Notes under the pieces: model-generated
Databases searched by the model: none
Told to the model about the DNA's origin: nothing
The model's input: the letters and a program-made list of their open reading frames with translations, nothing else
Position numbers and translations under genes: made by a program
Shown: piece after piece, positions 463-32,829 of the stretch
Layout of the letters: the number at the start of each line of letters is the position of its first letter
Numbering within the stretch: position 1 is the first letter of the stretch
IMG/VR virus record: IMGVR_UViG_3300042514_001623
Span: 1-63,009 of that record
Strand: one strand, 5' to 3'
Length of the DNA stretch: 63,009 bases
Source: a virus
Taxonomy: Duplodnaviria > Caudoviricetes

Positions 463-918
463 ATGCCTCAGTACAAGGCCAACGGCCTCTCCAACAACGC
501 TGCGCACATGCAGGCTTTCGGCAACGCCGTGCTCGAACACGACACGACCGTGCTGCCCGCTGCGCTGGCCCTCAACGACACCGTGGACCTCCTGCGCGTG
601 GCCGGCGGCACCAAGCTCATCGAGCTCTGGAAGACCAACGGCGACTGCGACACGGGCACGACGCTGCAGTACAGCCTGGGCTACCGCCGCGCCAACAGCG
701 ATGGCGTCATCACCCCGGTGGCCAACTACTTCGGCGCAGCCCTCACGGACCTGCAAGCCGCGGTGACTGGCACCAACCCGACGCGCTACGCCTTCGCGCC
801 CATCACGTTCGATGAGGACGTGTTCATCACCGCGACCATCACGGCCGCGGCTGCGGGCCAGTCGGGCAACCCGCGCATCGACGTGTTCGCGCACGGCATC
901 GCCCGCGGCATCAAGTGA
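463..918 (+). CDS. Probable capsid decoration/cement protein (151 aa)
   Basis: RBS AAGGA; directly after MCP; beta-rich composition; followed by terminators. Confidence 0.6.
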   Translation: MPQYKANGLSNNAAHMQAFGNAVLEHDTTVLPAALALNDTVDLLRVAGGTKLIELWKTNGDCDTGTTLQYSLGYRRANSDGVITPVANYFGAALTDLQAAVTGTNPTRYAFAPITFDEDVFITATITAAAAGQSGNPRIDVFAHGIARGIK

Positions 919-943
919 CGCGCTGACACCTCGTGTCTCCTGG

Positions 944-992
944 CGGGCGAAAGCCCGTTTTTCGGCCCCGGGCTCACCCCCGGGGTTTTTTT
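944..992 (+). terminator. Two tandem intrinsic terminators
   Basis: CGGGC-GAAA-GCCCG-T5 (944-962) and CCCCGGG-N6-CCCGGGG-T7 (966-992). Confidence 0.8.
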
Positions 993-1006
993 CTTGGAGC
1001 GAGCCA

Positions 1007-1375
1007 ATGAGCAACCTTTCCGTGCGGTACGTGGGCCAGAAGACCCAGCGCGCCGATACCGTGGCCGGCACCGGCCTGACGTGGTACGGCCACGGCGACA
1101 TCCAAAGCGTGCCGCTGGCCGCCTGGGACAAGCTCAAGCGCCACCCGGACGTGTGGGAACTGGTGGACACCACCACCGAAGCCCCGAAGACCGAGGGCAC
1201 CCTGGGCGCCGCATCTGGTGCCCTCGTCGGCAACGAGGACACCTCGGACCCCGAAACCCCGCCAGCCGACCGTGACGCCATCGTGGCGCAACTGGAAGCC
1301 CGCGGCATCAAGTTCGACAAGCGGATCAAGGACGTGACCAAGCTGGCCGCGCTGCTGACCGCCGAGGAGGCCTGA
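1007..1375 (+). CDS. Hypothetical virion-module protein (122 aa)
   Basis: GGAG RBS before ATG 1007; phage-like codon use; packed in operon. Confidence 0.7.
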   Translation: MSNLSVRYVGQKTQRADTVAGTGLTWYGHGDIQSVPLAAWDKLKRHPDVWELVDTTTEAPKTEGTLGAASGALVGNEDTSDPETPPADRDAIVAQLEARGIKFDKRIKDVTKLAALLTAEEA

Positions 1376-1376
1376 C

Positions 1377-2084
1377 ATGGGCACGCTTACCGGCCAGCAG
1401 ATCATCGACCGCGCGTGGATCATCTTGCAGGACACCAACGGCGCCACCGGCGTGCGGTGGCCCGCCACGGAGCAGATCCTGTGGGTGAACGACGGTCAAC
1501 GCGAGGTGGTGATGAACCTGCCGAGCGCCTACGTCAAGACGACCATCGCAGCGCTTCAGGCCGGTACGCGGCAGACCCTGGCGGGCCTGGGCTTCACGGA
1601 CGGCATCCAGTTTATGAAGATGCCGCGCAACTACGCCTCAGACGGCACCACGCCAGGCCGCGCCGTGACCATCAAGCCCATGCTGTGGCTGGATGAGCAG
1701 CGGCCGAACTGGCACAGCGACCCGGCGGCCCCGGCGATTCACTGCTTCTTCGATCCGGCAGACCCCAAGACCTTCTACGTGTGGCCGCCCGCGAACGGCA
1801 CCGGCAGGGGCGAGGTGGTCTATGCGGCGTCGCCGGCCGAACTGGCTTCGCTCAGCAACACCATCGTGCTGGACGACATCTACGCCAACGCCTTGCAGTA
1901 CTACGTGCTTTTCCGCAGCTTCAGCAAGAACGCGACCTACACCAAGGCCCCGCAGCTTGCCGCGCAGTACTACCAGCTGTTCCTGCAGGCCCTGGGCATC
2001 AAGGACGCGCGAGTGAAGGCGCTGGACGCGAACCTGCAGATGGCCGCTGACGGCGCCGGTGTGGCCGGCTCGCAGGCGAACTGA
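1377..2084 (+). CDS. Head-tail adaptor-like protein (DUF6682-like)
   Basis: IIDRAWIILQD...RW...W.NDGQREV motif typical of podovirus adaptors; position. Confidence 0.65.
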   Translation: MGTLTGQQIIDRAWIILQDTNGATGVRWPATEQILWVNDGQREVVMNLPSAYVKTTIAALQAGTRQTLAGLGFTDGIQFMKMPRNYASDGTTPGRAVTIKPMLWLDEQRPNWHSDPAAPAIHCFFDPADPKTFYVWPPANGTGRGEVVYAASPAELASLSNTIVLDDIYANALQYYVLFRSFSKNATYTKAPQLAAQYYQLFLQALGIKDARVKALDANLQMAADGAGVAGSQAN

Positions 2085-2093
2085 GGGTAGCCC

Positions 2094-3734
2094 GTGCTGA
2101 TCGCCGCGTGGTCCAACTTCCTCGGCTGCAACCGCAAGGTGCACCCCAAGCGCTTGCCCGAGGGGGTGGGCGCCAACGCGGTGAACCTGCGGCTGGGCTT
2201 CGCTGACCTGCGCGCGTGGCGCGAGGCCAGCACGGTGGTGACGACCGGCGGCGCGACGCCCCTCATCAGCGCCTACCGCATGAACCGCGCGACCGTGAGC
2301 GACACGAGCGCATGGATTCAGTGGACCACGGACGTGGACGTGGTGCGCAGCCTGAACCCGAACGACAGCACCGAGGAGATCTACTACACCGGCGACGGCG
2401 TGCCCAAGCGCACCGACAACGTGCTCGGCCTGCCGGCAGCACCCGGGCCGGCAGCCTCACGCACGCTGGGCATCCCCAAGCCCACGGCAGCGCTGACTGC
2501 CACGGTGTTGGTACCGGGCAGCGGCACCGACCAGACCCGGGTGTACGTCGACCTGTTCCGCAACGACCAAGGCCGGGCCAGCGCCCCGGGCGTGCCGCGC
2601 TCGATCGTGTGCAAGCCCGACGCCACGGTAACGCTGGACGGCTTCGACACGGTGCCCAGCGGCTACCCGGACGTGACCCTGCGCGACATCTACGTGAGCG
2701 TGGACGGCAGCGAGTACCGACGCTGCAACCAGATTGCGGTGGCTACCACCAGCGTGGTGGACACGGGCGCGCGTGGCGAGGTGATGGAAAGCGGCGGCAG
2801 CACCAGCAAACCCGCGTGGGAGATGCCCCCGAGCGGCCTGAAAGGGCTGATCGAGCTCTACAACGGCATGCTCGGCGGGTTCGTCGGCAAGCAGTTCATG
2901 GTGTGCGAGCCTGGCAAGCCCTGGGCGTGGCCGGTGGAGTACCAGGACACGGTGTTTGACGACATCGTGGGCACCGGCAAGTGGGGCCAGAACTGGGTGT
3001 TGCTGACGACCTCCACGCCCGTGGTGCTGCGCGGCGGCCCGTTGCTGTTCGACAAGCAGCCGGTGCAGTTCTTCCAGGCCTGCGTGAGCAAGCGCAGCGT
3101 GGTGAGCATGGGCAACGGCGTGTGCTGGGCCTCGCCGCGGGGCTTGTGCTTCATCGGCGACAGCGGCGTGCGCGTGCTGACCGAAGACATCCTGAGCCCC
3201 GAGCAGTGGGAGGCGCTAAACCCTTCCAGCATCACCGGCGCGCGCATTGAAGGTGGCATGTACTACGGCGCCTACAACGACGGCACGGCCAAGGCCTTCA
3301 TGCTCGACCCGAACAACCCGCGCGGGATCATCTTCCTGACCCAGGGCGCGCGGGGCGTGTTCTACGACCCCATCAGCGACCGGCTGTACTTGCAGGACAC
3401 CGGCAACGTCATCAGGCGCTGGAACCACCCGAGCGCGGCGCTGCTGACGGGCACCTTCCTCACCGAAGTGAAGCGGCACCCGCAGCCCACCAACCCGGGC
3501 TTTGCCATGATCGTCGCGGACGAGCCGGTGAGCGTGGCGTTCAAGCTCTATGCCGCGGTGCTGCAGGCCGACAAGACCACGGTGTGGACGGAGATGTTCA
3601 GCCGCACGGTGACCAGCGGCGAGCCGTTCAGCCTGCCCGCGGGATACATGGCGCAGGACTTCCAAGTGGAAGTGCAGACCACCGGCCCGGTGCAGGGCGT
3701 GCTGCTGGCCGAAGACGTGGCGGATCTCCCCTGA
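2094..3734 (+). CDS. Tail nozzle/stabilisation-type virion protein (546 aa)
   Basis: Size, position after adaptor, beta-propeller-like sequence (PWAWP, CVSKRSVV, SP.GL motifs). Confidence 0.6.
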   Translation: MLIAAWSNFLGCNRKVHPKRLPEGVGANAVNLRLGFADLRAWREASTVVTTGGATPLISAYRMNRATVSDTSAWIQWTTDVDVVRSLNPNDSTEEIYYTGDGVPKRTDNVLGLPAAPGPAASRTLGIPKPTAALTATVLVPGSGTDQTRVYVDLFRNDQGRASAPGVPRSIVCKPDATVTLDGFDTVPSGYPDVTLRDIYVSVDGSEYRRCNQIAVATTSVVDTGARGEVMESGGSTSKPAWEMPPSGLKGLIELYNGMLGGFVGKQFMVCEPGKPWAWPVEYQDTVFDDIVGTGKWGQNWVLLTTSTPVVLRGGPLLFDKQPVQFFQACVSKRSVVSMGNGVCWASPRGLCFIGDSGVRVLTEDILSPEQWEALNPSSITGARIEGGMYYGAYNDGTAKAFMLDPNNPRGIIFLTQGARGVFYDPISDRLYLQDTGNVIRRWNHPSAALLTGTFLTEVKRHPQPTNPGFAMIVADEPVSVAFKLYAAVLQADKTTVWTEMFSRTVTSGEPFSLPAGYMAQDFQVEVQTTGPVQGVLLAEDVADLP

Positions 3735-9784: not shown

Positions 9785-11047
9785 ATGAACCGAATGATGA
9801 CCCTGGGCGATGTCATCGACGCCGGCAACAAGGGCCGCGACGACCGCCAGCGCCAAGAGCAGTACCAGCGCGGGCTGAAGCAGCAGCAGATCGGCGACGG
9901 CGCCAACGCGCGAGCCAGCGAGGTGTTCCGCGCGGCCATGGATGGCGGTGAGGACCGCGACATCGCCATGTTGCGCGCCAGCGAGGCCTACGGCCAGCAG
10001 TTTGCCGAGGCCGGGCAGTGGCAGGACTACCTGAAGCACGAGGCCGCGGTGCACCCGCAGCGCCTGCGCGTGCGCGCCAAGGCCTTGCAGCAGTTCCAGA
10101 TGGACAAGAACCCCGAAAAGCTGCTGCGCACGGTGTACGCGACGGTCCCTGACGGCAACGACATCGAGGCGATTGAGAACCTGCCAGGCGGCGCCCCGGT
10201 GGACCGCGGCACGGCACCCACGGCGGCCAAGACTGCGCCCATGACGCTGGGGCAGGTGCAAGGCAAGTTCGACACCGAGGTGATGAACCCGTTGGGCGTG
10301 AAGGCCGAAGCGCCGCCGCCGGTGGTGAACCCTGGCACGCCAGGCGACGGCCGGCTGGGCGCCCCGAGCGGCCCCGCGGCGCTGCGCGTGCGCCTGAAGA
10401 ACGGCGAAGTGCGGCCGGTGGATCTCAACGGCTTCCTGAAGGGCGTGCAGCAGTCGCTGCAAGACCCGGTGAAGTCGGCCGAGAAGGAGATCGAACTGAA
10501 CTTCTTGCGCGCGCAGGAGGCCATCAAGGCCGCCCGTGCCGAAGGGCTGGAGCGCGTGAAGGGCGAAGAGACGCGCAAGACAGAGAAGGTCAAAGGCACG
10601 TTTCAGGCTGACCGCGACGCGCGGCAGGCCGCCGACCGGCGCACGCTGGCCGACATCAACAACACGGCCGACCTCGAACGCACGCGCATCACCGCGGCAG
10701 CAACCACGGGGGCTGCCGGCATCCGCGCCGGCGGCGGCAAGGACGATGACGACGGCGAGATCAAGACCCTGGCGCAGGCCAACCGCGCGGTGGAGACGGC
10801 GCGCAACGCGCTGAACCAGGCCACGACGGCCGCCAGCAAGATCCGGCTCGATGGCATGGACGGCCTGAGCCTGAGCGGCGAGGAACGCGCCGCGCGCGTG
10901 GACGCCGACCCGCAGGTGAAAGCCGCCCGCGCAGAATACGAGCGCGCTCTGGCCGTGCGCAACGACCTCGCATCCGGCAAGAAGCCCGCCGCAGGCACCA
11001 AGCGCCCCGCCGACGCCCGCCTCAACCAGTTCCAGGTGATTCGCTGA
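9785..11047 (+). CDS. Probable internal virion/ejection protein (420 aa)
   Basis: Helical, charged; lies between ejection-like gene and giant protein. Confidence 0.6.
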   Translation: MNRMMTLGDVIDAGNKGRDDRQRQEQYQRGLKQQQIGDGANARASEVFRAAMDGGEDRDIAMLRASEAYGQQFAEAGQWQDYLKHEAAVHPQRLRVRAKALQQFQMDKNPEKLLRTVYATVPDGNDIEAIENLPGGAPVDRGTAPTAAKTAPMTLGQVQGKFDTEVMNPLGVKAEAPPPVVNPGTPGDGRLGAPSGPAALRVRLKNGEVRPVDLNGFLKGVQQSLQDPVKSAEKEIELNFLRAQEAIKAARAEGLERVKGEETRKTEKVKGTFQADRDARQAADRRTLADINNTADLERTRITAAATTGAAGIRAGGGKDDDDGEIKTLAQANRAVETARNALNQATTAASKIRLDGMDGLSLSGEERAARVDADPQVKAARAEYERALAVRNDLASGKKPAAGTKRPADARLNQFQVIR

Positions 11048-14000
11048 TGACGATGACCACGTTCAAGGTCCGCGGGCCTGATGGCCAGATCCTCAACATC
11101 CGCGGCCCTGCCGATGCGACCGACGAGGAACTGCAGGCGGTTGCGGCGGCGAACTGGACGCCTTCGCGCGTGGGCACCGAGCGCGGCCGCGCCACGCTGG
11201 CGCAAGCCAAGCCCCTGAGCTACCTGCCCGACCCGCTGGAGCCGGCATCGCCGAACGCCACGGCCGACATGCTCAACGCCGGGGTCGACGCCGGTGCACC
11301 GCAGACCGAAGCCGGCGGCAGCGTGCTCGATCGGCCGCGCGACCCGCTGGCCCAGGGCTTCCGCGCCGCCAGCCAGCAGCAGCGCACCCTGGCCGACACC
11401 GCCGCCACGGCCAAGAATGACCGCTTCTTGAGCGCGCGGGCCAGCGAGGCCACGCCGATGCAGAAGCAGGCCATGGCCCTGGACGAGTCCGGCGCCGGTG
11501 GCATCAAGCGCGGTGCCATCGCCGGTGGCGCGCAACTTGGGCAGATCGGCCTGGGCGCCATGCGCCTGGTGGGCGACCTGACCGGCTCCGAAACCATCGA
11601 AGGCATCGCTGCGGCGGGCAGCAGGGCCGCCGAAGGCACGTCCATGGCCTCGATGCAGGGCCTGGAAGGCGGCGAGAAGCTGGCCGCGCAGGTGACGAGC
11701 TCGATCATCAACTCGGCGCCGGCCCTGGCGCTGGGCGTCATCGGCGGGCCGGCGCTCACCACGCTGTTCGCGCAGAGCACCCTGGCCGAATACAACGCTG
11801 GCCGCAACGCGGGCTTTGATCCCGGCGAGTCGCTGGGCCGCGGCATCATCATGGGCATTGGTGAAGCCGCTGGCGAGCGTTTCGGCCTGTCCGAGCAGAT
11901 CGCGCTGCTGAAGGGCGCGGCCAAGGGCTTGCCGCAAGGCGAGGTTGCGCGGCTGTTCGGCAACATGCTGGTCAAGGAAATCCCGGGCGAGCAGTTGACA
12001 ACGCTGGTGCAGACCCTGGCGGACAAGATCGGCCCGGCGGCGCTGAACCCCGATGCCACGCTGGCGGACTATCTGGAAGCCGCGGCCGACACGCTGAAGG
12101 TGACGGTGGGGCAGTCCCTGGTGATGGGCGGCGGCCCGGCCGCAGTCACGACCGCGCGCAACACCTTCCGCGCGGCAGACCAGGCCGCAGCAGGCCCCGA
12201 GGCGCAGGCCGCGCAGGAGATCAACGCGGCAGCAGCCTCGTTCGAGGGCTTCTTCAAGCCCGCCGACACGGCCGCCATGCCCACCCAGGCCCGTGCCGAG
12301 AGCGTCAAGCGCTTCGATGAACTGGCCGCGGCGTTCGGGCTGGACCCCAAGGCCGCAGCGCGCGTGCGCGAGCAGGCCGGCGCCATGCCCACCGCGCAGG
12401 TGCCGGGCTTCCTGGCCCGCGTCACGCAGGCGCTGAACAAGCGCGGGTTCTTCCGCCAGCCGGTGGACGAGACGGGCGTGCAGGAACTGCGCACTCGCAT
12501 CGAGCCGGCGCTGGCGCCCGCAGGCACCAACGCAGCGACGGAGAGGCCCGCTGTCGAACAGCCTGACGTGGCAGGAACTGCCGGAGTGGCTGCTGGAGCC
12601 GGTGATGCAGGGGCACCTGCTGCTGTGGGAAGCGGCGTGGCTGTGGGACCACTGCCTGATGCAGACGGAGGAGTTCAGCCCGCTGCCGCCGCAACTGTTC
12701 CCAGCAGCGGAGAAGCTGGCCCTGCTGGAGATGGAGGCGCTGCCGGGCCTGCACTGACCCTGCTGCCCATCGACGCCGACGCGGCGCTGGCGAACATGGA
12801 GCGCCAGAGCGCGCAGGACTACGCCGACACCAAGGCCGCCGGCCGCATGCCCGAGCAGCCCGACTTCGAGCCGCGCGAGAGCACCGACATCCTGAACCCG
12901 AAGGGCGCAGCCTGGGCGGCCAAGGTGGGCGCGAACAAGCGCCTGAAAGAGCTCGGCGACGGCTACCGCCTGGCGCGCGTGAGCACGGGCTGGGTTATCA
13001 AGCCCGTGGCTCCCGTCAATACAATCGACACCGCATCGGCGCCCGCCGGCCCTATCGCGCAAGCGCCCGGGTCGCAGTCCGCTTCAGGGGCACCAGAAGC
13101 TGCCGGCGCCGATGCACTCATCAATGCAGCAGTCGAACCCCAAGCCCCGGAATCGTCAGCGACGACGCAGCCGAGGCCGCAAACACTCAATCTGGACGCC
13201 GTATCGGACAAAGGCCTTCTCAACGCATCTCTTGCTGACGCCGAGTTGCTTGCCAGCGTTGCCAAGACTGAGCCCGCTGGCAACAAGTTGCTTGGCTCTC
13301 TCAATGTCGAAACTAAGAGGCTTGTGCTCTCGGCCGTGAGCCGACTTGTCAACGACCGCGAGATTTTCAAGCGCGTTGTTGAGCTTGTCCCCGTCGAGGT
13401 GATGAACGTCCTTACCGGCAATAGCAGCGGGGCCGATGGCGGCAGCGACTACCGCGCGGTGCTCAAGAACTTGGCGGCCGTTGACGCTGAAAACCCGATA
13501 CCCGTCCTCGTTGACGCTGCCGACACGTTTGTTCGTGTCACGGCAAACGCTGCTGCAGAAAAGCTTGCGATGTCCAATGGTGCCGGCGCGGCTGCGCCTG
13601 ACCGCGACTCCGCATTGAGCGCAGTTGAAGTGGACGCAGGCTCTTTGCCGCCAAGCGAATTGGCAGGACGTGTTGCAGAAGAAAACGCCAGATGGCGTTC
13701 GCGCGATGCGGGAGTCAGTTCTGAGGACGGCAGCACCGCATTGGCTACACTGGACGATAGGCAAGTCAATTCTCCAACCAGGATTGATGAGCTAGGGTCG
13801 TCATCGGATGCAACCAATGACGGCCCGCCTACTGTACGTGCATCCAGAGCAAGCGCAAAGCCGCAGGGCGTGGCTGCCGAACAGTCGCCAGCCGAAGCGC
13901 CTGCCCCCGCCGACGCGGCCCCGCCCCCCGGCTACGAGGCCATCGAGCACACCACCGGCAAGGGCAAGGTTCTGCGCGGCGTGGTGGTGAAGGGCATCAA

Positions 14001-17000
14001 GGGCGAGGATGCCCTGAAGCTGGACGGCGGCACCTTCAAGAAGGACGGCGGCTACTTCGTGCGCGAGAAGCACTGGGGCCGGTTGCCTCCCGTGGTCGCC
14101 GGCAACGACCGCGGGGAATCTGCGCCTGCTGATGCGCCAGCCAGTGCAAGTACAGATGCACAGCCGGCCGCTGCGGTCGACAAGGCGAAGAAGGACCAGA
14201 AGGCTGAGTTTGACCGTATCCGCGCAGAGATTGCGGCCAAGAAGGCCCCCGCCCCCGTCGACACGTCACCAGGACGTGCACAGAAACCGGCGGAAAGTGA
14301 ACAGGTTGCGCCGAGCCTGGGCAAGGCGCTGCAGACGGCCATGGGCAAATCCGGCTGGGCCGCAGAAGACAAGGGCGAGGGCAACACGTTCTGGAGCAAG
14401 CGCCAGGGCCAAGAGCGCTACACCGCGCGCTGGGACCGTGAGCAGGGCCGCGTGGAAGTCACGGCACTGGAAGCCGGCGGCGTTGAGACGCAGATTGCCT
14501 TCTTCGAGGCAACCGACGCCCAAGATGCAGCGCGGCGAGCGGACAAGGCAGTCGCTGATGACTTGGCCGAAATCGCAGCGCGCAATGGCTCCGCTTCTTC
14601 CCCCGCGCCCGAGAAAACAACGCCTGCCACCGAGGTGAGTTCTTCACCGGCAGAGCCCGAAGTCACCTCGTCGCAGCAGCCGCTGAGCGACGCCGAGCAG
14701 AAGGAACTGGACCGCATGCTGGGCCTGAACGCATCGGTCGGGTTCAAGGACATGGGCGGCCACTGGATGGCCGAGGCCACCGGCAACAGCCTGCGCATGC
14801 CGGTGCGGGCCCGCGGGTCTAGCAAGGACGCGGCGCGAAGGAACCTGCTGCAGGCCGTGCGCCAAGCGCGCGAGGAGCAGCAGGCCACCGCGGCCCCGAG
14901 TGCGGCGGCCGCGCCTACCCCAAGACCCGTGCAAACGACGGCCAGCCGCGTAGCCGATGCTCGGGCCATCGGAGCCCAGGCCTACGCAGAGGACGCCGAC
15001 CGCGTGCCGCCGCAAGCCTTCACGACCGCAGAAAAGCGGGCGTGGCTGGATGGCTACGACAACGCGCCGCCGCGGGCGTCCGCAGCACCGGCCCCCGCCC
15101 CCGCCGCCGCCGACCCCACCCTGGACGACGAACTGAACGACGCCCTGGGCAAGCTGGGCGACGTGCTGGGCGACGTGTTCGGCGCCAAGAAGAACATCAC
15201 CGGCCCGCAGTACGGCGCTGCCGACCTGCTGCCGGCTCTGTCCAAGGTGGTTGAACTGCTGGTGCGCAAGGGCTTCAAGAGCTTCGCCCAGGCCGCTGGC
15301 AAGGCCGCGGCGCTGATGCGCGCCAACGAGAAGACCGCGGCGCACGTCGACGCCATCACCCCGCGCCAGTGGAAGGCCGCCTACAACGCCATCGCCGAAG
15401 GCACCGAGGGCACCGACACTGAGGAAGCCCTGTCTGCGATGACGGCCGAGCAGGTCAAGGCCATCGTCAGCCCGGCCATTCCGCCAGCAGCGGAATCCGC
15501 GCCGGCGCCGGAAGCGCAGAATCAGGCCAAGGAGCCCGCCAATGGAAATGCACCACGCCAACTGGATCGCCCAGGCCAACGAGCACTGGAAGGAGCACCA
15601 GCCGACCCGGTACAAGCGCCTGATGCAGGCGGGCGAACTGGGCAAGGCGCTGAAGGAAGCGGCAGCGCAGACGGCGACCGAGTTCCAGGCGCTGAAGGAG
15701 CAGGGGCTGGACGCCCTGGCGGCGTGGGAGATGGTGCGGGAGCGCTACCTGTTCCCGGCCGAGGAGCCGGGCGCAAGCCCCGCGGAGAGCCCAAGCCAAG
15801 GGTACGGCGCGATGCGCGACCTGACGCAGACCCTGGGCTCTTTGGGGATGGAGCCGGACCCGATCCGCAAGGACTGACCGCGCCCAACGTGGCGCCGCCG
15901 GCCCCGCCGGCATTCACGCCCACGGACTTCGAGATTGCCGACGACCTGGCGCTCGGCGAGGGCGGCCAGAAAGCCAAGTACCGCGGCAACGTCGAAGCCA
16001 TCCGCCTGCTGCGCGACCTTGAGGCCACTGGCCGCACCGCCACGCCGGCCGAGCAGCGTGTGCTGGCGCGCTACGTGGGCTGGGGCGGCATCGCGCAGGC
16101 CTTCGATGCGGGCAACAAGGACTGGACGCGCGAGTACGCCGAGCTTAAGGAACTGCTGACCCCGGAAGAGTGGGCCACGGCCAACGAGAGCACCCAGTAC
16201 GCGCACTACACCTCGCGCGAGATCATCGGCGGCATCTACGAGGCGCTGGCCCGCATGGGCTTCACCGGCGGCAAGATCCTTGAGCCTGGCAGCGGCGTGG
16301 GGAACTTCGTCGGGCTGATGCCGGCGGGCCTGCGCACTTCAAGCCGCTTCACCGGCGTGGAGCGCGAGGCCATCGCTGTGGGCATCGCCAAGCAGCTGTA
16401 CCCGCGCCAGAACATCCAGCGCGCCGACTTCACCGAGTTCATCGGCAACGATGGCTTCTTCGACCTGGCCATCGGCAACCCGCCTTTCGCGCGCAACCCG
16501 CTGACCGACAAATCGGGCCGCAAGCACCTCACGGGCTTGTCGGTGCACAACTACTTCTTCGCCAAGGCCGTGGACATGCTGCGCGAGGGCGGCATCCTGG
16601 CGCAGGTGGTGTCCAACAGCTTCTTGGACGCCAAGCGCGACACCGCGCGCCGCTACATCGCCGATCGCACCGAGTTCCTGGGCGCCATCCGCCTGCCCAA
16701 CAACGCCTTCGCCAAGAACGCGAACACCGAAGTCACGACCGACATCGTGTTTCTGCGCAAGCTGCCCGAAAGCGAGTGGGGCAGCCGCAGCGGCAAGGAG
16801 AACCGCGACCGCTGGCTGGACACGCAGAACATCACCGACCCGAACGGCGGCGATGACATCCCGGTGAACCGCTACTTCGCCGAGAACCCCGAGATGATGC
16901 TGGGCCAGATGGGCCGCTACGGCACCATGTACGGGCCCGGCCAGCCGGCCCTGGTGGCCAAGCCCGGCCAGGACACGGCCGCACTGCTGCGCGCTGCCAT

Positions 17001-20000
17001 CGCGCGCCTGCCCGAGGGCGTCTACACCCCGCCGGCCGTGGCCAACACCGCCGCCATGGGCGACGCGGCCATCGTGGCGCTGCGCAACCCCAAGGTGCAG
17101 GAGGGCGGCCACTACGTCGAAGGCGACAAGCTGTACCGCCGCCTGCAGGACGTGGCCGGCGAGGCCCGCGCGGTTGAACTGACCCCGGACACCCAGTGGA
17201 CCGAGAAGACCAAGCTGGGCGAGGAAGGCTTTGCGCGCATCAAGGCGCTGGCAGGCCTGCGGCAGACCCTGCGCGACCTGCTGGCGGCCGAACTGGCCGA
17301 CGCCAAGGACATCGAGGCGCTGCGCACGCGCCTGAACACGGAGTACGACGCCTACGCCAAGCGGCACGGCCTCATCAACGACCGGCCCAGCGCCCGGGTG
17401 TTCGATGACGACCCCGACTACCCGCTGCTGGCTTCGCTGGAGCACGGCTTCACGCCGGGCATCGGCGCTGCGGCCGCGCGGAAGATGGGCGTCAAGCCCA
17501 TGCTGGCCACGGCCAAGAAGGGCCCGATCTTCAAGGCCCGGGTGATCGAGAAGCGCACCGCGCCGACCCGCGCCAGCAGCCCGGCCGACGCCCTGAACAT
17601 CAGCATGGCCGAGCGCGGCCGCATCGACGCGGCCTACATCGGTGAACTGCTGGGGATCAGCGGCGAGGAAGCGCTGCGCGACATGAGCCAGGGCGCCAAG
17701 CCGCTGCTGTTCATGGACCCGGCCAGCAACGAGTACGTGCTGCGCGACGCCTACCTCTCCGGCAACGTGCGCGCCAAACTCGCGCAGGCCCGCCAGGCCG
17801 GGATGATGGCCAACGCCCGCGCGCTCGAAGAAGTGCAGCCGCCCGACGTGAGCGCCGGCGAGATTTCGGTGCGCGTGGGCTCGCCTTGGGTGCCGACGCC
17901 GGTGTACGAGGCTTTCGCGCGCCACCTGTTCGGCGACGGCACCTCGGCCAAGTTCATCTACGTGAAGGCCAACTCTTCCTTCATGGACGCCATATCGGGC
18001 GAATCCGACGTGGCTTCCAGCGCCACCTGGGGCACGCCCAGCTACCCGGGCCCGCAGATCCTGACCTCGCTGATGAACAACCGCGAGATCAAGGTGATGT
18101 TCAAGGACGCGGACGGCAGCCTGAAGGTCGACCGCGAAGCCACCGATGCGGCGAACCAGAAGGCCACCGAGATCAAGCAGGCCTTCAGCGACTGGGTGTT
18201 CAGCGACCCGGAGCGCGCTGACGTGCTGACCAAGGCCTACAACGAGGCCAACAACAACTACGTGACGCGCGCCTTCGACGGTGGCTACATGCAGTTCCCG
18301 GGCAAGGTGCCCGACAGCATCATCAAGTTCCGCCGCCACCAGCGCAACGCCATCGCGCGCATCGTGCAGGACCGCACCGCGCTGCTGGACCATGTGGTGG
18401 GCGCCGGCAAGACCTTCACCGTGATCTCCGCGGCGATGGAGCTCAAGCGCACCGGGCTGGCGAACAAGCCTCTCATCATGGTGCCGAACCACTTGGTGAA
18501 GCAGTGGGCGGCCGACTTCTACCGCCTGTACCCCGGCGCCAACATCCTCACGGCCACCAAAAAGGACTTCGAGAAGACCAACCGCCGCCGCTTCCTGGCC
18601 AAAATCGCCACGGGCAACTGGGATGCCGTCATCATGGCGCACTCATCGTTCGGCTTCATCAAGCCGGCGCCCGAGTTCGAGGCCCAGTTCAACGAGCAGC
18701 AGGTCAAGAACGTGATGGACACCATCGACGCGGTGAACGCGGGCGATGCTGACGAGGGCACCAAGAAGCGCACGGTCAAGCAACTGGCCGCGTTGAAAGA
18801 GCGGCTGGAGAACCGCATCGACGCGCTGCGCCAGAAGCCGATCGACGCGCTGCTGGACTTCAAGGAAATCGGGGTCGATCAGCTGTTCGTGGACGAGGCG
18901 CACTTGTTCAAGAACCTGATGTTCACGACCAAGATGCAGAACGTGCGCGGCCTGGGCGACTCGGCCGGCTCGCAGCGCGCCTACGACCTGTTCATCAAGA
19001 CGAACCAGCTGTACGCGCAGAACGGCCGCGGCCAGGGCGTGGTCTTCGCCACCGGCACGCCGGTGTCCAACTCGCTGGCCGAGATGTATCACATGATGCG
19101 GTACCTGATGCCGCAGGCCCTGCAGGAGGGCGGCTTCGAGTCGTTCGACGCCTGGGCCAACACCTTCGCATCCGTCGAACAGGTGTGGATGCAGAAGATC
19201 TCGGCCAACGGCTTCAAGGCCGACAACCGCATGAGCACCTTCGTGAACACACACGAACTGCTCAAGATGTTCGATCAGGTTGCGGACACCGTGACCATGG
19301 ACGACATCAAGAAGGCCTACGCCGAAGAGAACGACGGCCGCGAGTTCCCCCTGCCCAAGCTGAAGACCGGCCGCCGCCAGCCGGTGTCCCTGGACAAGAG
19401 CCAGGCGCAGGAGGACTACATGGCCGCGGTGGCGGCCCGTGCCCAGGCCATTGAGGGCAAGCGCACCAATGAGAAGGGCATGGACAACGCCCTGAAGATC
19501 ATGGGCGACGCGCGCAAGGCCGCCATGGACATCCGGCTGGTGGATGTCACCATCACCGAGCGCGAGAAGGGCGGCCGCATCGACCGCGCCGCCGACGAGA
19601 TCGCAGCGCGCTACCGCCAGTACGGCGACGTGAAGGGCACGCAACTTGTTTTCTCGGACCTGGGCACGCCGATCAAGCACGCCCGCGAGGAAATGAAGGA
19701 GTGGGAGGCGCTGCAGGCCCGCATCCAGAAGGGCGTGGACCCGGAAACCGTGACCGCGGCGAACTTTGGCAACGAGGCCGCCATGAAGGTGGTGGAGGAC
19801 GCCGAAGACGCGCAGCGCGAGATGGACGAGAAGGGCGCCGACTGGCTGGACGCCGTGAAGGCGGCCTTGCGCGGTTTCTCGGTGTACGACGACCTGCGCG
19901 CAGCGCTGGTGGAGCGGGGCATTCCCGACAGCGAGATCGCCTTCATCCACGACTACAACACCGACGACCAGAAACTCAGCCTGTTCCGCAAGATGAACGC

Positions 20001-23000
20001 GGGCGACATGCGCGTGCTCATCGGCTCCACGCCCAAGCTGGGCGCCGGCACCAACGTGCAGGACCGCCTGGTGGCGCTGCACCACCTTGACGTGCCTTGG
20101 AAGCCCAGCGACGTGGAGCAGCGCGAGGGCCGGATCATCCGCCAGGGCAACAAGCTCATGGACACGGTGCCCGGCTTCGAGGTGGAGATCCTGGCCTACG
20201 TGACCAAGGACACCCTGGACATGCGCATGTGGCAGGTTCAGGAGACGAAGCTGAAAATGATTAATCAGCTTCGCACGCGCCAGATCAGCCGCGAGATCGA
20301 CAACGCTTTCGAGGACATGGAAATGTCCGCGGGCGAGATGCAGGCCGCCGCCACCGGCAACATGGACCTGCTGAAGGAGATCCAGCTTCGCACCGACGTG
20401 AAGAAGCTAGAGCAGGCCAAGCGCAGTTTCGACGCCACGCGCAACGATCTCGTGTCGCGCCGCCGGCGCGCAGACGAGGCGGTGGCCACCCTGCCGGCCA
20501 AGATTGCCCGCGCCGAGAAGATGGCCGAGGCATCCAAGGCCTACACCGACGCGCAGAAGGCGCAGGCCGAGCGTTTCTCGGTGACGGTCAACGGCAAGGC
20601 CTACACCGACGCCCGCGAGGCTGGCGCGGTGCTGCAGGCCTTCGTGGACGCCAAGCAGTTCACCAAGAAGGGCACCGACATCGTTCTGACGCCTGAGCAG
20701 TACCAGGCCATGGACGAGGACGAGCGTTCGGCCAGCAACGGCTGGCAAGAGCGCCCGGTGCCGCTGAAGGTGGAAATGGACGGCAAGACCTACACGGCGC
20801 GCGCTGCGCTGGGTGAGGCTTTCGCCGACCTGCGCGGCGACGTGAACGACGCGCCGCTATGGCAGGTGGACGGGCAGACCTACATCCGCCGCACCAAGGC
20901 CGCCGCGGCCATCGCGCAGCGCGTGGCCGACAGCATGGCCGAGATGACCGAGGCCGAGGTGGGCCGCATCGGCCCCTTCACCGTCACGGTGGAAGGCCAG
21001 CCGCCCAGCGCCTACGCCACGGGCACGACGGGCCTGGAGGTGGTGATTCGCGCGCCTGGCGGTGTGGAGGCGAGCACGACGCTGAACTTCAAGGACATCG
21101 CCAGCGAGGACGACGCCCGCAAGGCGGCAACCGGCGTCATCAACGCGGCCATGAGCCTTGCCAGCGGTGGCCAGCAGCAGGTGTTGTGGCTGCGCAGTGA
21201 CTTGGAGCGACAGCAGCGCGTGCTGGCCGACTTGGCCACGGCCAAGGTGGCGGCCGATTTCCCGCAGCAGGACAAACTGGAAGCAGCCCGCGCGGCGCAC
21301 AAGGAAGTGCTGGCGCGACTGGCGGCCAAGCCCGAGCAGCCTGCAGCGCCCGAGGCCGATGAGGCCGCCGGCGACACCGCACTCAGCCGCGGCGCTGGCC
21401 GCGGTGTGGCCATGGCCGACGCCGAAGCGGCCCGCGACGCCCTGCTGCGCGCGATGCCCAAGGCGCCGCGCATCACCCTGCTGGAACGTGTCGACCAAGC
21501 CCCGGCAAGCCTGCTGAGCAAGATCAGCAGCGCTGGCGCGAGTGCCGACGTGGAGGGCGCCTTCCACGAGGGCGAGGTGTTCATCTTCCCGGGCAACATC
21601 GACAGCCTGGAGCGCCTGCAGTTCGTCATGGCGCACCACGAGTTGCGGCACTACGGGCTGCGCTCGCTGATGCCCAACCAGAACCGCCGCGGCCCGCTGC
21701 TGCTGGCCATCTACAACACCAACCCCGAGATCCGCCGGCAGGCCGACGACAAGATGGCCGCCGGCCTGGCTGGCAGCAAGGTGCTGGCGGTGGAGGAAGC
21801 CCTGGCCGACATGCCGGTGGAGCAGATGCAGGCGCTGAAGGGCGGCCCGCGGCTGCTGGCGGCGCTGCGCGACGTGCTGCGCAAGCTGGCCGAGGTGTTC
21901 CGCAGCCTGGGCTGGGTGCGCGTGGCCGATGCCCTGGAGCCGGCGACGTGGACCGATGCTGACGTGGTGGCCCTGGTGCGCCGGGCTGAAGCGGTGAGCC
22001 GCACGGGTGGGCCGCTGTTCCGGGTGGGGGATACGGCTTTCAGCCGCAGCCCGAGCGTCGCCACCAAGGCCTTGACCGCCGCCCTGTCCAAGCCCGGCGC
22101 CGCGCTGCGCGACGTGCGCCTGCCCGCCGGGTACGTGGTGGGCGACTGGTTCGGCAACAGCCTGGGCCGCCTCCACTGGTGGCACAAGACCGTGGGCACG
22201 CCCTACAACCTGGCAGAGCGTGAGCGCAGCTTCCGGCCGGTGTTCGAGTCGATCCAGAACTTCATGGACGACATCAGCCACTACGCCACCGAGGCGGCCA
22301 ACCTCGCGCCGAGCATCCTGCCCAAGCTGGAGAGCATCACCGACATCCTGAAAGCCCCGCTGCCGCCGGCCGACGTGAAGGCCTTGGCCGCGCCGGTGTT
22401 CGAGGGCACGCTGGGCTGGGGCCGCGACTTGGACGGCAAGCCGGTGCGCATGGTGGATCTTGAGGCGAAGGCCGCACAGCTGAGCGCCGAGGACAAGGCG
22501 CAGGAGATGCTGCGCCGCCGGCTGCTGAACCCGCGCGTGCTGAAGATGTGGCAAGGCCTGCCGCTGGAGCAGTTCGAGGCGGCTGTGGAGACGCGCTACC
22601 AGAACGAGGTGCTCAAGCCCGGTGTGGTGTGGTCCGATGGCGAGCTGCGCACGATGTTCGGTCTGAGCCCGCGCCAGATTGCGCTGTACCGCGAGTTCCG
22701 CAGCGCCACCGACAAGAGCCTGGACGATCTCACCATCACCACCATGCTGCGCGTGGGTGGCGAGGAAGTGGCGGACCTGCGCGAGCAGGTGCTGGCTGAG
22801 CCCGACCTGATGACGGCGGCCGAGCTCATCCGCGACCGGCTGTTCGACCTGGCAGAGCAGCAGCCCGAGAACGCCGACGCGATGAACGCGCGTGGCAACG
22901 GCATCATCGACATCGCCGACCGGGTGGAAGACCTGAAGGACCGCGGCTACGCGCCGCTTTCGCGTTTCGGGCAGTACACCCTGGACGTGGTGACGCCGGA

Positions 23001-25701: not shown

Positions 25702-26090
25702 TGGACGCCCGCAGCGAGAAGAACCTGCAGGGCGTGCACCCTGACCTGGCGCGCGTGGTGCGCATCGCATGGGAGCGCATGGACGGCCGCGCCGACAAAC
25801 TGCGCTTCATCGCCATCGAGGGCCTGCGCACCAAGAAGCGCCAGGCCGAACTGATGGCCGCCGGTGCGTCGCAGACCATGAACGGCCGGCACCTGACCGG
25901 GCACGCCGTCGACCTGATGGCCACCGTGGCCGGCGCCGCGCGCTGGGACTGGCCGCTGTACGCAACGCTGGGCGCGCACGTCAAGGCCGTGGCGGCCGAG
26001 CTCGGCGTGCCGATCACCTGGGGGGGTGACTGGGCGCGTTTGCGCGACGGTCCTCACTTCGAGTTGTCGCGCAAGGAGTACCCGGCGTGA
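25701..26090 (+). CDS. Endolysin, peptidase M15 family (L-Ala-D-Glu type)
   Basis: GVHPDL, EGLRT..RQ..L, H..GHAVD, WGGDW...DGPHFEL. Confidence 0.9.
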   Translation: MDARSEKNLQGVHPDLARVVRIAWERMDGRADKLRFIAIEGLRTKKRQAELMAAGASQTMNGRHLTGHAVDLMATVAGAARWDWPLYATLGAHVKAVAAELGVPITWGGDWARLRDGPHFELSRKEYPA

Positions 26091-26116
26091 GCACGGCCGC
26101 TGTTTTGGCCCCGCCG

Positions 26117-26614
26117 TCAGATGGTGCAGTGCCCGTGCAAAGCGCGTTTCGCGGACAAGTAGGCGTGATGCGCTTCTTCGGCAGTCCTAAACGTACCAAG
26201 CCTGATCGTCACGCCATTCTGGACGATAGAGGAGCGGAACCCGCTTCCATGAGGATGCGCGCCAAGCAGACCAGAACTGCTGCCGGATTTAGCCCGGCGC
26301 TGATTCTCTCCGTTCTGAGACTTGGTGGCTTCGCGCAGATTGGCAATCCGGTTGTCGTCGCGGACTCCGTTGATGTGGTCAACGAAGGTGCGCGGCCACT
26401 CACCATAAACGTAAAGCCAAGCCAAACGGTGGGCTGCGTAATTGGTCTTTCCGAACATGATCGTGCGATAGCCGCTGGCGCGAACGTACCCGCACGGTTG
26501 GCCGGTTGTGACGCCCCGTACTGGCGCAATCCAGGTGAAAGCGCCGGTGTCGGGGTTGTAGCGCACCGTGCGACGAAGCTCGTCGGCGGTCAACCTAGAA
26601 TTGAAATTGCTCAT
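26117..26614 (-). CDS. HNH endonuclease with AP2-like C-terminus
   Basis: YNPDTGAFTW, AHRLAWLY..G.WP, DHINGVRDDNRIANLR, LGTF.T.EEA; AAGGAG RBS. Confidence 0.92.
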   Translation of the reverse strand: MSNFNSRLTADELRRTVRYNPDTGAFTWIAPVRGVTTGQPCGYVRASGYRTIMFGKTNYAAHRLAWLYVYGEWPRTFVDHINGVRDDNRIANLREATKSQNGENQRRAKSGSSSGLLGAHPHGSGFRSSIVQNGVTIRLGTFRTAEEAHHAYLSAKRALHGHCTI

Positions 26615-26700
26615 GCCATTCGCTCCTTACAGCGGTGGGGTGGGAAGTGGCAGGGTTGGCTGGCAGGCCAACTCTGCTGCGCCTATTTTAGGCGCGCGCC

Positions 26701-27024
26701 ATGAACACTGTTGCAGTGGCCTTCGTAGCCGGCGCGGTCATTTCAGGTGTCGCGGCATTCCAGGTCCAAGCCTGGCGGTGGGGCGCGGCCGACGCGGCCC
26801 GGCTGGAAGCCCAGGCCGAGGCCCAGCGCCTGCAGGCCCGGGTGGCCGATGAAGCCGCAGCACGTCACGAGGCCGAGAAGGCCGCCATTGCGGCGCAGCG
26901 CCGCACCATCACCAAGGAGGTGGTCAAACTCACCGAGCGTGAGTCAATGCAGGCGCAATGTCTGGACGCTGCTGCTTTGGAGCTTGTCAGGCAGGCCGCT
27001 TCGCCTGAGCCCGCCAAGCCTTGA
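26701..27024 (+). CDS. i-spanin (Rz-like)
   Basis: N-terminal TM, coiled coil, C-terminal Cys; in lysis cassette. Confidence 0.75.
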   Translation: MNTVAVAFVAGAVISGVAAFQVQAWRWGAADAARLEAQAEAQRLQARVADEAAARHEAEKAAIAAQRRTITKEVVKLTERESMQAQCLDAAALELVRQAASPEPAKP

Positions 27025-32129: not shown

Positions 32130-32344
32130 CCCTGCCACTCCCAAGCCAGCGGCCGAATACCGTGCGCGCCCCTGCGCTCCCCGTGGCCGTTGGGCTTCAG
32201 CAGGCCGTGGTTGTGGAATGACGCGACCCAGTTCCTTGCGCCTTCAGGGTGCGTGTCCAGCGTTTCCGCCAGGTCGGCAACTGTGAACCGGCGTAGGCGC
32301 TTCATGGCAGCGGCCACCTTGGCCCCGTTGCTCTTGCCGGCCAT
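32126..32344 (-). CDS. Small winged-helix-like protein
   Basis: FTVADLAETL......RNW....HGLL. Confidence 0.55.
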   Translation of the reverse strand: MAGKSNGAKVAAAMKRLRRFTVADLAETLDTHPEGARNWVASFHNHGLLKPNGHGERRGAHGIRPLAWEWQG

Positions 32345-32829
32345 CACAACGTGCACCCTGGGTGCAACTCACGCTTCTTGGACACGTAAGCGGCATGGGC
32401 TTCTTCTGGCGTGTTGAACGTACCAATGTGAATCCGCACGCCCTTAGACATGATCGTCGCCGCCCATTTGCCGTGCCTTGGCGAAGCTCCTAGCAAACCG
32501 CATTTGTTGTTTGAAAGGGCCCGTCTTAAGTTTTGGCAGTTGATTGCTTTTGGCACGTCCCGCAAATTGCAGAATCGGTTATCCAGTGGGTTCCCGTTGA
32601 TGTGGTCCACGAAACCGGAAGGCCAACTGCCAGTCACATAGAGGAACGCCAGCCGATGCACCTGGCAAGGCGCACCTTCTAGGCGAATCACCCTGTAGCC
32701 ATCGCTTCTTAGGTTGCCTGCCAAGTCGCCAGCGCGTGCCGACCCTCTGCGAACCTTCCACCGGAATTCGCCAGTGTCTTGGTTGTATTCAAGAAGCTCT
32801 TTGAGAAGCGATTGAGTCAATGTGCTCAT
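32344..32829 (-). CDS. HNH endonuclease with AP2-like C-terminus
   Basis: YNQDTGEFRW, HRLAFLYVTG.WP, DHINGNPLDNRFCNLR; lower GC. Confidence 0.92.
   Translation of the reverse strand: MSTLTQSLLKELLEYNQDTGEFRWKVRRGSARAGDLAGNLRSDGYRVIRLEGAPCQVHRLAFLYVTGSWPSGFVDHINGNPLDNRFCNLRDVPKAINCQNLRRALSNNKCGLLGASPRHGKWAATIMSKGVRIHIGTFNTPEEAHAAYVSKKRELHPGCTL

Follow-up and report, generated by a model that had tools for sequence, protein, structure and literature searches.

How can a complete endonuclease gene lie inside a much larger viral gene, on the opposite strand, without breaking the reading frame of the larger gene? The question is raised by the IMG/VR record IMGVR_UViG_3300042514_001623 (Duplodnaviria; Caudoviricetes), a complete viral genome of 63,009 bp with direct terminal repeats, the whole of which is called the window below. 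The minus strand of the window carries an HNH endonuclease gene of 202 codons at 13156-13764, opposite the 4647-codon frame of a giant gene whose product is a predicted virion protein. An earlier note on this DNA had read the arrangement as a homing element tolerated as a translated linker of the host protein. All of the computational tests proposed there support that reading, in which translation, transcription and cleavage are the steps we infer. The phage most likely translates straight through the HNH gene as spare linker, and we put the probability of an inserted, expressed homing cassette with read-through by its host at about 0.7.

The mechanism we propose begins with a mobile cassette of ~690 nucleotides (nt), which would have been inserted backwards where the giant virion protein gene encodes a linker. 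It would consist of a free-standing, I-HmuI-like HNH homing-endonuclease gene and a 72-nt leader with a Shine-Dalgarno sequence and two hairpins. Read-through of the host frame would place ~228 essentially unconstrained residues, or 255 if the adjoining linker is counted, between modules that floppy linkers already connect, and the nuclease would be made from a separate antisense transcript. In mixed infections the nuclease would cut cassette-less alleles, and recombinational repair would copy the cassette in, displacing the resident sequence.

The nested endonuclease gene

Family, fold and residue conservation confirm the ORF (open reading frame) at 13156-13764 as a genuine, intact HNH_3 endonuclease gene with a predicted I-HmuI-like core, and bear out the earlier description of a complete zinc-finger, HNH and helix-turn-helix gene. 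The product matches the Pfam family HNH_3 (PF13392) with an E-value of 5.7e-10 (39.1 bits, cut-off 24.8), and 18 of the 20 PHROG families it matches are HNH endonucleases (best 2.1e-14). A phmmer search of 1.84 billion representatives returned 6110 relatives at E<=1e-3, of which 273 reach <=1e-10 and 12 reach <=1e-30; the best of them, a protein of 199 residues, is 46% identical over the full length, and free-standing proteins of ~200 residues align with the window product end to end. Among 5.8 billion predicted proteins, a search restricted to near-equal lengths gave one distant relative. In an alignment of 48 family members the window protein retains all 11 invariant columns (C48, C51, C70, C74, H102, H121, H122, N130, N134, L135 and H143), and these include the four cysteines of the zinc ribbons and the His and Asn positions of the motif (H102, H121, H122, N130, N134 and H143), as in an HNH (beta-beta-alpha-metal) nuclease.

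The product is built of two CxxC zinc ribbons, the HNH core and a C-terminal helix-turn-helix. Its AF2 model has a mean pLDDT of 94.6, and the top solved-fold match of the core is I-HmuI (PDB 1u3e; Z 7.8, root-mean-square deviation 2.1, 67 residues, 27% identity), 2 Z units ahead of the next structure; residues 148-202 match helix-turn-helix DNA binders at Z 5-5.8. A Foldseek search of the PDB with the same model gave nothing at E<=1e-3, the top match being again I-HmuI (4.7e-3, probability 0.98), and a profile search of PDB sequences found I-HmuI at E 0.0031, ranked under designed-repeat and zinc-finger noise.

The codons of the two genes are in exact register (13762-11047 = 2715 = 3 x 905), so that the HNH codons and the host codons opposite them are exact reverse complements, and the 4647-codon frame stays open across the HNH gene as the earlier note had described. 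Because of this register, and because the HNH codons avoid TTA, CTA and TCA, no stop arises in the host frame and a ribosome would read through. The lower-GC patch reported previously is also present: GC content is 0.565-0.62 across 13100-13900 and ~0.70 in the adjoining DNA. At third positions of host codons the values are 0.63 for the cassette and 0.46 for the leader, compared with 0.83-0.90 in the sequence outside, and the host-frame composition of the cassette is thus foreign.

A second DNA copy of the cassette lies in a 61-kb viral contig (L003). The HNH product of this copy is 66% identical to that of the window over the full length, and its gene likewise runs antisense, in codon register (6949-4003 = 2946 = 3 x 982), to an enclosing ORF of more than 2316 codons whose flanks are unrelated to those of the window. 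The ratio of non-synonymous to synonymous divergence (omega), which the earlier note had put forward as a check on each strand, was estimated by the Nei-Gojobori method over the 202 codons aligned between the window and L003, with 2000 bootstrap replicates. For this single pair omega is 0.415 in the HNH frame (95% confidence interval (CI) 0.28-0.58) and 0.849 in the host frame (0.60-1.20), and the host-frame value is equal to or lower than the HNH-frame value in 0.5% of the 2000 replicates. At the amino acid level the HNH frame is again the better conserved, at 66% identity against 57% for the host frame. The contrast in omega therefore indicates that selection acts on the nuclease, while the host frame drifts apart from remaining open. 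A search for cassette-less relatives of the L003 host gene returned four loci, none of them such a relative, and the sole close one was the same contig. That the HNH frame is a chance antisense ORF was considered and rejected on the evidence of family, fold and selection.

Alternative alleles and further hosts

The cassette is polymorphic between near-identical host genes. A relative of the window in IMG/VR (L002) shows ~98% identity up to 13148-13152 and renewed similarity from 13918; where the window has positions 13153-13917, L002 has ~405 nt that are unrelated, and both alleles are in frame. The earlier note had foreseen a clean in-frame indel against a related giant protein: the relative does lack the segment and stays in frame, and the difference is a 405-nt replacement. 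The linker of ~280 residues proposed there comes down to 255 codons (765 nt) for the allele-specific segment. The HNH stop codon (13158-13156) sits a few bases inside the left breakpoint.

Contigs from 24 public lake-water metagenome runs, none of them listed as an RNA run and with incomplete contig cover in X21, X22 and X24, contain both alleles. In run X9 the cassette allele is represented by an 881-nt contig (depth 12) with 0 differences over 13088-13968, and the other allele by a 521-nt contig (depth 17.7) in which 13152 is joined to 13918 by different letters. In run X21 a loose end at 13152 continues as L002-type sequence. Sporadic presence and absence between near-identical host alleles, a trait of homing endonucleases, is accordingly seen both between the window and L002 and within X9. 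The alternative module of L002 matched no Pfam family and contains no endonuclease-like ORF in any frame, and a search for relatives of the L002 flanks returned L002 itself only. The differences between the window and L002 over 12349-13148 number 6 in the last 200 nt by the left junction and 8 in the remaining 600 nt; a co-conversion tract would give such clustering near the junction, and the counts are too small for a test.

Since gene callers report the host ORF and not the nested gene, the plus-frame read-through peptide was used as the query for further copies. It was found in five more proteins, represented by protein sequence only: P0158 (4547 residues) and P0159-P0162 (1088-1296 residues). 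Together with P0157, the 2778-residue host protein of L003, six other host proteins contain a read-through of the cassette. The residues of P0158-P0162 are compatible with an in-register antisense HNH gene at 15-16 of 16 conserved sites, and overall at 90-156 of 194-202 positions; shuffled sequences gave means of 36-40 and maxima of at most 59. P0159-P0162 share a C-terminal tail, located 120-350 residues past the cassette and read in the same frame; use of the host frame therefore continues beyond the cassette. The flanks of the cassette fall into at least three or four contexts among the hosts.

The domains found elsewhere in these proteins differ. P0157 carries an Acb1 anti-CBASS phosphodiesterase domain at residues 1155-1298 (PF23474, E 1e-38), and P0158 carries LPD1 at 2827-2896 and a sub-threshold ART-PolyVal match at 3437-3481 (24.8 bits, cut-off 31.2); the cassette therefore resides in polyvalent proteins with quite different cargo. 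P0162 (1296 residues) contains two read-through copies, at residues 634-842 and 1000-1158. The second is partial, lacking the leader and the first zinc ribbon, and is compatible with the HNH gene at 12 of 14 alignable conserved sites; it looks like the decayed remnant of an older insertion, retained in place as protein sequence. Directly upstream of the cassette, a small module ending in a GGW/Y-x-V-R-like motif is found in P0158 (500-547) and P0162 (585-621), and its window counterpart (12880-13020) reads TGWVIK, 49 residues upstream of the cassette. This module may be a preferred target region; three other hosts differ in the upstream flank.

The open frame, the leader and competing explanations

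Several points weigh against a homing cassette that is expressed and read through by its host. We infer from the DNA and protein sequences that the segment is translated, that an antisense transcript is made and that cleavage leads to homing. The HNH-frame omega of 0.42 amounts to only moderate constraint and comes from a single sequence pair. The cassette is rare at the DNA level, no further copy being found beyond L003 in JGI metagenome contigs, GTDB genomes or IMG/VR. The polymorphism is a replacement of 765 nt by 405 nt and not a clean insertion, and giant genes are mosaic, so that module shuffling without endonuclease activity could move the cassette. A sigma-70 promoter scan upstream of the HNH gene gave 0 sites, which leaves the candidate promoter of the earlier note without a counterpart. 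A peptide search of called ORFs returns open frames only, and this ascertainment bias means that the further hosts demonstrate recurrence and not selection for openness. Finally, open in-register antisense frames are common in this phage, and openness alone is weak evidence of selection.

The mosaic character of the host genes lends itself to a different account of how the cassette moves: it would be real and read through, and its spread would be passive, by homologous or illegitimate recombination of mosaic modules, with the HNH gene a decaying passenger or a gene with some other role in the phage. The strong mosaicism of giant proteins, the replacement between alleles and the variety of host flanks all agree with passive spread, as does the partial second copy in P0162. 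Purifying selection on the HNH frame speaks against it, and so does the retention of the catalytic and zinc-binding positions, which are kept or compatible in seven full copies. The leader with its Shine-Dalgarno sequence is moreover nearly invariant, as expected of an expressed and active nuclease. We consider passive spread unlikely, though it is the strongest of the alternatives to the homing cassette.

How much the open frame says by itself depends on codon usage. Codons whose reverse complement is a stop (TTA, CTA and TCA) occur at 2.9 per 1000 in the supported genes of the phage, and owing to this scarcity 58% of 255-codon windows are open antisense in register. Synonymous resampling gives a probability of an open frame of 0.58/0.54 under host codon usage and of 0.10/0.06 under the cassette's own base composition. 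Such cheap openness explains why a backwards, in-register orientation works; it cannot alone prove translation. Two more HNH_3 and AP2 endonuclease genes lie on the minus strand of the window, at 26117-26614 and 32344-32829 (Pfam E 2.9e-18 and 1.8e-13). The first has 0 of 165 such codons and an in-register shadow ORF of 205 residues on the plus strand (26087-26704), which has no family match and is probably not a gene; the second has 5 of 161. Long minus-strand ORFs also lie opposite the giant gene, at 10603-13062 (819 residues), 16339-18642 (767 residues) and 20857-24375 (1172 residues). The 819-residue ORF is in register, and all three are taken as shadow ORFs of GC-rich DNA. The fold of the plus frame was discarded as evidence: a single-sequence AF2 model of it reached a pLDDT of 43.9, there was no alignment, and a genuine small module at its end scored no better.

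The frequency of open in-register antisense frames, together with the fully open, family-less shadow ORF of the HNH gene at 26117-26614, would suit a host gene that is effectively interrupted, its downstream 3700 residues being made from an internal start, or the read-through being removed by a protease, with openness a by-product of GC richness. It would also suit such an interruption that four hosts have just 120-350 residues beyond the cassette. We regard it as improbable, given that both junctions keep the phase, not only in the window and L003 but also in the five hosts represented by protein only. Conserved modules and the C-terminal tail follow in the same frame without a stop, and no Shine-Dalgarno sequence or start was noted at 13918.

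The leader is a nearly invariant part of the cassette. It is identical between the window and L003 at 67 of 72 nt, against 74% identity in the coding part; the homology between the two copies ends abruptly at 13836, and the leader occurs once in the window. It contains the ribosome-binding site that the earlier note had attributed to the gene, GGAGA at 6 nt before the TTG start, and two hairpins (Table 1). In the stem of hairpin A the window has T.G at pair 13798-13823, where L003 has T-A, and C-G is implied in four of five further hosts, as judged from amino acids only; the residues of P0162 likewise imply, at the level of protein, two double compensatory changes elsewhere in the stem. In hairpin B the substitutions between the window and L003 at 13782/13783 exchange a U-A pair and a U.G pair of the host-sense RNA. 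The host-sense RNA folds with z-scores of -2.9 and -4.4, the HNH-sense RNA with -1.0 and -3.7. The wobble pairs of the window favour the host-sense RNA as the folded strand, and the pair implied by P0162 favours the opposite strand. Inspection by eye revealed no sigma-54-like GG-N10-GC spacing, and no motif that the leader has in common with those of the other two HNH genes. A promoter or operator, an mRNA leader and a site bound by the enzyme itself are all candidate roles for the leader.

In the host frame the leader reads as a stretch of 26 residues that is nearly invariant in six of the seven hosts, the rest of the read-through being 36-63% identical, and three of the five nucleotide differences between the window and L003 leaders are synonymous in that frame. 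Both observations would be expected under true dual coding, with part of the plus frame, for example these 26 residues, functioning as a processing or docking motif. Selection at the nucleotide level explains the conserved stretch instead, because it coincides with the Shine-Dalgarno sequence, the start codon and two co-varying hairpins; the host frame opposite the HNH-coding part has an omega of 0.85, and 1 lies within its CI. Dual coding is in our judgement very improbable. The chance that the segment is spliced out, as a group I or group II intron with an antisense endonuclease gene or as an intein, is negligible: antisense homing-endonuclease genes do exist in nuclear group I introns (PMC9548176), but an Rfam cmscan of 12500-14500 on both strands at E<=1, which very divergent introns could escape, gave no intron and only PhotoRC-I noise (16.4 bits, E 0.39), there is no Hint/intein domain among the five Pfam families of the whole giant protein and no such blocks in the host-frame translation, as the earlier note had seen, and an intron has no need of an open, in-phase frame in seven hosts.

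Beyond the homing cassette itself, a more specific and tentative proposal, which we hold to be somewhat less probable than its negation, is that the cassettes form a lineage of HNH elements specialised for a backwards, in-register life in the linkers of polyvalent virion genes. The hairpin leader would drive or gate antisense expression, GC-rich codon usage would be exploited, and decayed copies would be kept as linker. If this is true, the largest phage proteins repeatedly gain new sequence from the antisense strands of selfish nuclease genes, which would also represent a class of mobile genes systematically missed by gene callers.

Related systems and the host gene

I-HmuI of Bacillus phage SPO1, the closest solved structure, is likewise an extended, multi-domain DNA binder with a C-terminal helix-turn-helix. 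It is encoded on the sense strand inside a group I intron, whereas the window HNH protein has no intron and has two N-terminal zinc ribbons in addition. Free-standing homing endonucleases of phages are also known to split host genes, as T4 mobE, T4 mobA with the gene 60 bypass cassette, and the split nrdA of Aeh1 exemplify. There, as here, a selfish HNH gene invades a phage gene without intron or intein and is tolerated; the host gene is however broken into two polypeptides or rescued by ribosomal bypassing, while the host frame in the window is whole and would be read through.

The closest parallel is found in mycobacteriophage methylase genes, in which Arsenault, Gosselin and Gogarten (2025, Genes 16:178, PMC11855218) describe HNH genes hidden in the +3 frame. 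In the cases presented there, the ShiLan domain and Pacc40 gp60 insertions, the host frame is open and is proposed to be translated through as a tolerated loop. As described in that article, the ShiLan type resembles the window gene in that a complete zinc-finger HNH gene is nested in a stop-free host ORF with junctions in phase, without intron or intein features, and with a disjunct distribution among close relatives. The ShiLan-type genes as reported lie on the same strand in the +3 frame, have no detectable ribosome-binding site, and are proposed to undergo leaderless translation from the host mRNA. The window gene, in contrast, lies on the opposite strand in codon register, with a strong Shine-Dalgarno sequence of its own and a conserved hairpin leader, and its host gene, from a GC-rich lake-water phage, encodes a giant polyvalent virion protein. 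Being on the opposite strand with its own Shine-Dalgarno sequence, the HNH gene therefore needs a separate antisense transcript.

The window HNH protein is homologous, with 35% identity (E 4e-6), to one hidden in a methylase gene, that of Mycobacterium phage Bipolar. This is a 169-residue ORF (L025:1501..2010) in the +3 frame of the methylase coding sequence (749..2755), on the same strand; the main text of PMC11855218 does not name Bipolar. That article contains no mention of a hidden HNH gene on the opposite strand, and a search of open-access papers and bioRxiv yielded no phage example of an antisense or hidden opposite-strand homing-endonuclease gene. Outside phages, antisense homing-endonuclease genes are reported in nuclear rDNA group I introns (PMC9548176). 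These share with the window gene a strand opposite to that of the host gene; as described in that source they sit in a spliced intron of an rRNA gene, with no dual coding and no read-through. The principle of a hidden HNH gene read through by the host ORF is thus already published, in a same-strand, out-of-frame form according to PMC11855218. What is new here is the opposite-strand, in-register form with its own ribosome-binding site and hairpin leader, and its occurrence in giant virion genes.

An arrangement of this kind offers a selfish nuclease a second route to colonise a large or essential ORF without an intron, an intein or a split of the gene. A backwards, in-register insertion in GC-rich DNA would leave the opposite frame open almost free of cost and be invisible to standard annotation. 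The locus would represent a natural case of both-strand use over ~228 codons in a phage, and similar insertions are a possible source of some of the 'unknown' stretches in polyvalent proteins. The lake-water runs with both alleles provide a population for direct tests of homing.

Table 1. Coordinates of the nested gene, its leader and the surrounding host features in the window.
Feature	Position	Strand	Basis
Host gene, polyvalent virion protein (predicted), 4647 residues	11047..24990	+	ORF list, Pfam, neighbours
Allele-specific segment, 765 nt = 255 host codons	13153..13917		window/L002 alignment, metagenome contigs
HNH endonuclease gene, 202 codons, TTG start, TGA stop at 13158-13156	13156..13764	-	Pfam, PHROG, phmmer, AF2
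Conserved 5' element (HNH leader, 72 nt)	13765..13836	-	window/L003 alignment
Hairpin B, 9-bp stem (13765-13773 / 13780-13788), over complement of HNH start and Shine-Dalgarno	13765..13788		fold analysis
Shine-Dalgarno GGAGA, 6 nt before TTG start	13771..13775	-	identical in L003 copy
Hairpin A, 10-bp inverted repeat (13795-13804 / 13817-13826), 12-nt loop	13795..13826		fold analysis
Window-specific Ala/Pro-rich linker, cassette to next conserved module	13837..13917	+	aligns with neither L002 nor L003
Small conserved host-protein module, L002 similarity resumes	13918..14100	+	window/L002 alignment; relatives in 10 viral-contig loci

The host gene has the features of genes for polyvalent, PLxRFG-type giant virion proteins, packaging in the virion itself being predicted. 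Pfam recognises in its product an Eco57I N6-adenine methylase (residues 1793-1880), an SNF2/ResIII helicase (2426-2623) and Helicase_C (2962-3034), and the C-terminal ~980 residues are 46% identical to proteins that 71 cultured-phage records, Pseudomonas phages for the most part, name 'structural protein' or 'PLxRFG domain-containing protein'. Virion and tail genes lie on one side of the giant gene and a holin gene on the other. The combination of methylase and helicase modules, a PLxRFG-type C-terminus and a position in the virion gene block is the reason for calling the protein polyvalent, and we take it to resemble Bcep22 gp75 and DarB. Neither blastn of 12000-15000 nor tblastn of the first 1500 residues against 50,697 cultured-phage records gave a match, and the small module that follows the cassette matched no Pfam family. 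Farther downstream, at 21400-21500 (around residue 3470 of the giant protein), an HExxH-like motif lies in a stretch that is 100% identical in the L002 protein and has no reported Pfam match; this stretch presumably resembles the metallopeptidase module of polyvalent proteins.

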